From a virus (taxonomy: Duplodnaviria > Heunggongvirae > Uroviricota > Caudoviricetes), in IMG/VR virus record IMGVR_UViG_2534682295_000015, positions 1 through 10,636 of that record: a DNA stretch of 10,636 bases. The stretch is one strand, 5' to 3'. How positions within the stretch are numbered: the stretch's first letter is position 1; the number at the start of each line of letters is the position of its first letter. Both the position numbers and the translations under genes were made by a program. Positions 8,883 through 8,948 of this stretch are shown in pieces. The notes below the pieces were generated by a model. It saw only the letters and a program-made list of their open reading frames with translations, made no database searches and was not told where the DNA came from.

Positions 8883-8948
8883 CCGCCACTAGCTCATCAG
8901 GAAAGAACGTCACCCTGTGCGAGATTCGGAGTCCCCGGTGGCGGTCCA
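8883..8948 (+). other. Degenerate tRNA-like element (possible tRNA remnant/pseudo-tRNA), 66 nt
   Basis: Perfect 7-bp acceptor pairing CCGCCAC (8883-8889) with GTGGCGG (8938-8944), followed by T + CCA (8945-8948). TA at positions 8-9 and a D-stem-like GCTC are present, but I cannot fold canonical D, anticodon or T arms, and it is ~10 nt too short. Confidence 0.35.

Follow-up and report, generated by a model that had tools for sequence, protein, structure and literature searches.

A likely tRNA pseudogene in the middle slot of the lambdoid ileZ-X-argO tRNA cluster

Genomic context of the tRNA block

The window, by which we mean the whole stretch of 10,636 nucleotides analyzed here (IMG/VR record IMGVR_UViG_2534682295_000015), corresponds to a segment of mosaic lambdoid prophage or phage DNA. 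No phage record was found to cover it, and the best match for positions 6000-10636 displays 95.1% identity over 87%. The notion that the window is O157:H7 DNA itself was rejected, as identity to O157:H7 genomes reaches 100% only in its tRNA block. The features of the window are as follows:

1695-2846, + strand: C-5 cytosine methylase (PF00145, E = 2.6e-61)
6460-7134: Q-like antiterminator (DUF1133 / Phage_antitermQ)
7543-7560, + strand: terminator-like hairpin GCCTTCAGTCCTGAAGGC followed by TTTTTT, probably tR'
7707-8765, + strand: N6/N4 DNA methylase (PF01555, E = 2.4e-43)
8806-9038, + strand: tRNA block
8806-8881, + strand: ileZ-type tRNA, anticodon CAU, intact, first of the cluster (ARAGORN; 70.9 bits with the Rfam tRNA model)
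8883-8948, + strand: 66-nt element, the subject of this study
8949-8961, + strand: 13-nt spacer TTATCGGTATTCT, kept in most cluster alleles
8962-9038, + strand: argO-type tRNA-Arg, anticodon UCU, intact, third of the cluster (ARAGORN; 71.4 bits with the Rfam tRNA model)
9148-9356, + strand: STnc100 sRNA (Rfam, 175.2 bits)
9358-9417, - strand: AgvB (anti-GcvB) sRNA (Rfam, 56.6 bits, just over the 56-bit threshold)

The hairpin at 7543-7560 lies between the Q-like and N6/N4 methylase genes, and its probable identity as tR' would make expression of both that methylase and the tRNA block dependent on antitermination by Q. We found no sigma-70-like promoter directly upstream of the tRNAs; hence, the block is likely to be transcribed with the late operon. 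The cytosine methylase represents a second class of DNA methyltransferase in the window. The STnc100 and AgvB genes are arranged tail to tail just downstream of the tRNA block, where Stx2a phages have stx2AB. The stx genes themselves are absent from the window; in Stx2a phages, stx2AB is situated between the tRNAs and the downstream region. Two published observations concern comparable neighborhoods: one describes an Stx2 phage in which stx2a is neighbored by three tRNAs, two Arg and one Met (PMC7946995), and the other, a 2026 preprint, reports tRNA, STnc100, and AgvB matches around prophage sRNA genes (10.64898/2026.05.13.724894).

The element between the two intact tRNAs

A re-reading of the window recovered the element at exactly the coordinates first reported (8883-8948, + strand). 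ARAGORN and the Rfam model place both flanking tRNAs, thereby bearing out the first-pass annotation, which had set the element between tRNA(CAU) and tRNA-Arg(UCU). The sequence of the first of these is found unchanged in EDL933, where PGAP labels it tRNA-Ile. The element is separated from the ileZ-type tRNA by a single nucleotide (A8882) and from the argO-type tRNA-Arg(UCU) by the conserved 13-nt spacer, and it thus occupies the middle slot of the cluster. Its parts run in the order CCGCCAC TA GCTC ATCAGGAAA GAAC G TCACC C TGTG CGAGA TTCGGAGT CCCCG GTGGCGG T CCA and are assigned as follows:

8883-8889, + strand: 5' strand of the acceptor stem, CCGCCAC, tRNA positions 1-7 (from the sequence; identical in the HS13-1 tRNA-Lys)
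8892-8908, + strand: D arm, GCTC / ATCAGGAAA / GAAC (from alignment to intact alleles, which have GAGC)
8910-8919, + strand: remains of the anticodon arm and variable loop, TCACC C / TGTG, with a junction at 8915/8916 (from the alignments)
8920-8937, + strand: damaged T arm, CGAGA / TTCGGAGT / CCCCG (from alignment with the HS13-1 tRNA-Lys)
8938-8944, + strand: 3' strand of the acceptor stem, GTGGCGG, forming 7 Watson-Crick pairs with CCGCCAC
8945, + strand: discriminator T
8946-8948, + strand: encoded CCA

The acceptor end is complete, and the perfect 7-bp stem, discriminator, and encoded CCA that had originally been noticed in this 66-nt element are all present in the sequence. To gauge what such an end is worth as evidence, we scanned the window for a perfect 7-bp stem followed by NCCA in a total length of 55-94 nt. 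There are exactly three matches on the + strand, namely, the two tRNAs and the element, and one more on the - strand, as against a mean of 0.78 sites in shuffled windows. The - strand site (1083-1158) lies inside overlapping open reading frames, is at the chance level of 0.78 per shuffled window, and is called by neither ARAGORN nor Rfam. By itself, the stem-plus-NCCA motif is poor evidence, and it is homology that settles the identity of the element.

Homology to the middle gene of the cluster

A megablast search with positions 8780-9060 matched 289 phage records, mostly of Stx-converting phages. One of these, Stx2a_F349, carries the genes that its depositors named ileZ, argN, and argO at the matching positions and with the same spacing, followed by stx2A/B; these gene names, and the location of the cluster upstream of stx, are adopted here from its GenBank annotation (AP012530). 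ARAGORN reads the same cluster as CAU, Arg(TCG), and Arg(TCT). The element aligns with the Stx2a_F349 argN over its full length with a single 12-column gap that falls on the anticodon arm. Gapped BLASTN of the tRNA-Lys of Escherichia coli HS13-1 against the window aligns positions 1-77 of that gene with 8883-8948 (E = 8e-14), and the two ungapped halves display 96.7% (30 nt) and 93.9% (33 nt) identity. Together, these alignments to argN and to the HS13-1 tRNA-Lys substantiate the earlier suggestion of a decayed third tRNA from the three-tRNA cluster of Stx phages, and the clear homology with related prophage tRNA clusters sets the element apart from unrelated spacer sequence. An att (integration-site) remnant was also considered and rejected, as both tRNA halves are present, in order, with the loss internal to them.

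The middle slot, which we denote X in ileZ-X-argO, is occupied by argN, a tRNA-Arg(UCG), in Stx2 phages and by tRNA-Lys(UUU) in some other prophages. In Stx lambdoid phages (AP012530 Stx2a_F349, AP012538, phage 2851, and Nil2), argN is the middle gene of ileZ-argN-argO upstream of stx and is spaced like the element, with 1 nt separating it from ileZ and 13 nt from argO. The backbone of the acceptor stem, the D arm, the T arm, and the TCCA end are common to both. It differs in having a full UCG anticodon arm, scoring 43 bits, and being detected by ARAGORN, whereas the element lacks 12 nt and bears three further lesions. Moreover, two acceptor pairs of the Stx2a_F349 argN are G3:U70 and U7:G66, as against G3-C70 and C7-G66 in the element.

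E. coli HS13-1 shares the Lys(UUU) allele, located directly 3' of ileZ, with about a dozen further genomes; in HS13-1, this allele is labeled tRNA-Lys by PGAP and Lys(TTT) by ARAGORN. It has in common with the element an identical CCGCCAC/GTGGCGG stem, the D loop, the TGTG remnant of the variable loop, and the same CCCCG 3' strand of the T stem, but it is intact, 77 nt long, and scores 44.4 bits. Its cluster reads ileZ-Lys-Thr-Gly, with tRNA-Thr and tRNA-Gly after the Lys gene, where the window has argO instead. On sequence comparison, then, the intact allele of the slot that stands closest to the element is tRNA-Lys(UUU) and not argN/Arg(UCG), and the alignments show its parent to have been an allele like the HS13-1 tRNA-Lys(UUU).

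Several further observations can be made on the intact occupants of the slot. The gene after ileZ is either tRNA-Arg(UCG) or tRNA-Lys(UUU), with common acceptor, D, and T arms. Over the 22 nt that make up the anticodon arm plus variable loop, the HS13-1 gene (L134:408-484) is set apart from argN (L001:1596-1672) by 8 substitutions, without any indel; these include a compensatory change between A30-T40 in the Lys allele and G30-C40 in the Arg allele. This difference looks like an alloacceptor (anticodon) shift within a single gene lineage. The Lys(UUU) form has C33 in place of U33, a residue near-universal in tRNA. The same argN and a Lys-type allele from PPompW (L003:1596-1671) have CCGCCAY/GTGGTGG acceptor strands with a G3:U70 wobble; G3:U70 is the classical identity element for alanyl-tRNA synthetase.

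Lesions relative to the intact tRNA-Lys(UUU)

We list the lesions in tRNA numbering, with the intact HS13-1 tRNA-Lys(UUU) as the reference; four or five can be counted. The most drastic is the disappearance, at 8915/8916, of 12 nt, which takes away the anticodon (34-36) together with the loop's 3' half and the 3' strand of the stem (39-43). The alignment allows two readings of this loss: either C33-G44 were lost together with an A30>C change, or A30 was lost (1 nt) together with T35-T45 (11 nt). Between position 26 and the T stem, only 10 nt are left of the 22 required for an anticodon arm. With no anticodon, the element is unable to decode any codon, and the first-pass proposal of an unusual minimal tRNA fails for want of an anticodon loop.

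The remaining lesions are in the D and T arms. A G24>A change at 8907 creates a C11-A24 mismatch in the D stem, leaving three of its four pairs, with the GG of the loop present. In the T arm, G53>A at 8924 abolishes the G53-C61 pair, which is near-universal in tRNA, and one added G (at 8928 or 8929) converts the T loop from TTCGAGT to TTCGGAGT, an 8-nt loop. Three of five T-stem pairs are still possible; the A51-C63 mismatch is also present in intact relatives. The interior is therefore not "scrambled," as it had been described: the D arm has a single mismatch, the T arm is recognizable with two lesions, and the loss from the anticodon arm is a clean one of 12 nt.

No lesion falls in the acceptor stem, discriminator, or CCA. 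Since the HS13-1 tRNA-Lys parent allele has the identical stem, its perfection in the element needs no special explanation, and the idea that the stem was perfected by repair or selection after decay was dropped on the same ground. We estimate the chance of about five lesions all sparing the acceptor end at ~30%, given that the stem accounts for 14 of the 66 positions.

Scoring and folding of the element

No tool that we applied calls the element a normal tRNA. The Rfam tRNA model (RF00005) gives no match at the element either at its gathering threshold of 29 bits on the window or at E <= 10 with the search confined to 8860-8975, and ARAGORN finds no tRNA there at its default settings, with thresholds lowered to 95%, 80%, or 60%, or in intron mode. 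In the matching genomes, PGAP leaves the site of the element unannotated. A permissive Rfam search on the element returned only noise, in the form of SMAD5-AS1_3 (E = 0.54) and Twister-sister (E = 3.3). The same deletion allele in another genome (L136) likewise has no Rfam tRNA match. Intact alleles of the middle gene score 43.0-54.0 bits with the Rfam model and the flanking tRNAs 66-74. Scores of individual middle-slot alleles are as follows, with type B denoting a class of alleles described below:

L005, Arg(UCG): 54.0 bits
L134, Lys(UUU) of HS13-1: 44.4 bits
L001, argN of Stx2a_F349: 43.0 bits
L006, Lys type without one D-stem base: no match
L008 and L009, type B: no match

As a free RNA, the element has a minimum free energy of -20.5 kcal/mol (z = -0.89 versus shuffles), and by this comparison, no unusually stable alternative fold was detected. 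The only noteworthy parts of the minimum free energy fold are the acceptor stem and an adjacent 3-bp hairpin in the T-arm region. The acceptor stem is still predicted to form in the 246-nt three-gene precursor, where A8882 may also pair with the discriminator T8945, giving a predicted stem of 8 bp.

Distribution of the deletion allele and decay of the slot

A search of 5426 complete E. coli genomes with an 81-nt query across the deletion junction recovered the deletion allele in 394 of them, 392 of which are identical. The carriers include O157:H7 and O111:H-/H8, with no more than 2 copies per genome, and there are up to 11 cluster-matching places per genome. FRIK2069 has the deletion allele (H75) and an intact argN elsewhere (H124), and strain 7636 similarly combines the deletion allele (H77) with an intact argN (H140). 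The function of the middle gene is therefore redundant in those cells.

We also surveyed the slot by a pattern scan of IMG/VR and fetched records, which yielded 131 usable loci and, among them, 55 different alleles of the middle gene:

Canonical Arg(UCG): 86 of 131 loci
Type B, with a 5-nt longer, unrelated interior: 35 of 131 loci
Lys type, with a D-stem base missing and no score above the Rfam threshold in the copies checked (L003 and L006): 4 of 131 loci
Deletion allele of the window: 6 of 131 loci

The type B alleles (e.g., L008:402-481; also L007, L009, L010, L011, L012, and about 30 IMG/VR loci) occupy the same slot as the element, belong to the same acceptor stem family, and, like it, have no Rfam tRNA match. 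Their lesion history is independent, in that the anticodon region has been exchanged or lengthened (+5 nt) instead of lost. They combine a normal acceptor stem and D arm with the interior GACGACACGATAACAGGGTTGTTGG, unrelated to the Arg/Lys anticodon arm, and, in many cases, a decayed T loop whose poly-G tract varies in length. One copy is annotated by PGAP as "tRNA-OTHER" and others are unannotated; at lowered thresholds, ARAGORN proposes an 8-nt loop. In L115, a window-like 5' part is joined to a type B interior, and this mosaic shows recombination inside the middle gene.

Outright absence of the middle slot is rare among the viral contigs scanned. No contig with 31-61 nt between ileZ and argO was found, and a gap of 0-30 nt was seen in one contig only, which has a different cluster. 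This contig (L133:2020-2200, - strand, IMGVR_UViG_2558860275_000006), the only one found without a middle-slot element, has an ileZ-type tRNA and, just 1 nt beyond it, an argO-like tRNA whose anticodon loop differs; a further tRNA comes next.

Invariance of the element: selection or young age

When the window is compared with three loci carrying the same allele (L002, L061, and L068), the element has 0 differences in 66 positions, and ileZ and argO have 1 each, while the flanks differ at 36-39 of 150 positions upstream and at 10-14 of 40 downstream (~25-35%). Taken alone, an invariant element between diverged flanks could point to purifying selection on the remnant. However, the deletion allele has 2 variants among 6 loci and is identical in 392 of 394 genomes, as opposed to 36 variants among 85 loci for the functional Arg(UCG) alleles (mean pairwise difference, 0.075), even though these are under selection, and this paucity of variants indicates a recent origin of the deletion allele. 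Further, its sole variant (L020) has a G66>A change that breaks the 7th acceptor pair. In type B, two variant alleles (L015/L075 and L012) have a broken acceptor-stem pair, so the stem is not visibly protected in that class either.

The limits of the conserved block coincide exactly with the outer ends of ileZ and argO, as expected if these near-identical genes serve as homology arms for exchange; that exchange of this kind takes place is shown by the L115 mosaic. Taking these findings together, we infer that the invariance across flanks reflects recent exchange of a cassette between phage backgrounds, probably through ileZ and argO and among lambdoid phages of mosaic makeup. Faster evolution of the middle slot than of its neighbors found no support: the diversity of functional middle alleles (0.075) is close to that of argO (0.077-0.088), and only ileZ is much less diverse (0.008-0.010).

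Interpretation of the element

In light of the above, we consider it highly probable that the element is a nonfunctional pseudogene, young and redundant, of the middle tRNA gene of the lambdoid ileZ-X-argO cluster. Like tRNA pseudogenes in general, it displays homology to a tRNA gene, disabling lesions, redundancy with intact copies, and the absence of a call by tRNA finders; it is unusual only in its perfect ends and its location inside a live tRNA operon. The one alternative that merits retention, though unlikely, is that the dead tRNA is kept as a punctuation mark, with RNase P cutting at its 5' end and thereby maturing its live neighbor, ileZ; its acceptor stem, short T-like hairpin, and NCCA end would have been preserved for this reason. 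Such a cut, 1 nt after the ileZ CCA, would leave a 1-nt 3' trailer on ileZ and release the tRNAs of the block. Some polycistronic tRNA transcripts of E. coli are indeed separated by RNase P alone, and the 1-nt gap (A8882) is too short for a separate endonuclease site. The predicted 7-bp stem, with the 3-bp hairpin abutting its 3' strand, gives a minihelix-like stack, and the slot is rarely deleted in full, as it might be if a tRNA-shaped spacer were of some value. The invariance of the element across diverged flanks might be added to these points, but it is accounted for by the youth of the allele. Against a retained processing signal, moreover, the single L020 variant breaks the very stem on which it would depend, as do two variants in the older decayed lineage, type B. 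The T arm used by RNase P is damaged (G53>A and the 8-nt loop), and the predicted A8882-T8945 pairing would extend the stem to 8 bp, which would be unfavorable to normal cleavage.

A still more remote reading is that end processing yields a tRNA-like RNA with a new role, such as a decoy for tRNA-binding or -cleaving enzymes or a regulatory sRNA. We regard it as very improbable. Only the intact acceptor end with its encoded CCA and the wide spread of the allele over 394 genomes speak for it, while no structure beyond the stem outdoes the shuffled controls (z = -0.89), no Rfam family is matched, and covariation is absent because there is almost no variation. The lesions, too, resemble random damage and fall at D- and T-arm positions that tRNA-binding proteins would use. 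Literature searches on ileZ/argN/argO and the neighboring prophage sRNAs gave no paper naming the cluster genes, and term queries within three papers gave no mention of such a remnant RNA. Finally, beyond the stem and CCA, nothing favors either an unusual minimal but functional tRNA or a spacer with chance complementarity, and we assign next to no credence to them. The former would have to do without a drawable anticodon loop (10 nt versus 22) and is invisible to ARAGORN even at 60% thresholds; the latter is at odds with an E value of 8e-14, the same slot, and the same flanks. Both were discarded on these grounds. Hence, the element is best described as an ordinary, previously unannotated tRNA pseudogene and not as a new kind of RNA.

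For this pseudogene, we propose the following history. As the alignments show, an allele like the HS13-1 tRNA-Lys lost 12 nt and gained G24>A, G53>A, and the extra G in the T loop. The remnant would still be transcribed within the tRNA block, probably as part of a Q-dependent late operon downstream of the DNA methylase; its segment would then be cut from both flanking tRNAs and degraded like a defective tRNA-like RNA. The loss is probably tolerated because the host cells contain multiple cluster copies in which the middle gene is intact. The allele is young and would have been passed between diverged phage backgrounds as a cassette, with ileZ and argO acting as homology arms.

Implications for lambdoid phages and their hosts

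By itself, the element is of little significance. In practical terms, the corresponding sequence in 394 of 5426 E. coli genomes, including those of O157:H7 and O111, should be labeled a tRNA pseudogene and not a phage tRNA or a new RNA. Should the RNase P hypothesis hold, the element would offer a modest but elegant example of a pseudogene kept for processing. More generally, the tRNA block appears to travel between phage backgrounds as a unit, and the middle slot of ileZ-X-argO has undergone repeated decay, with about a third of the 131 sampled loci decayed. In every decayed locus examined individually, both flanking tRNAs remain callable at 66-74 bits, a pattern that suggests that tRNAs for the rare codons AUA and AGA are what the phages need.
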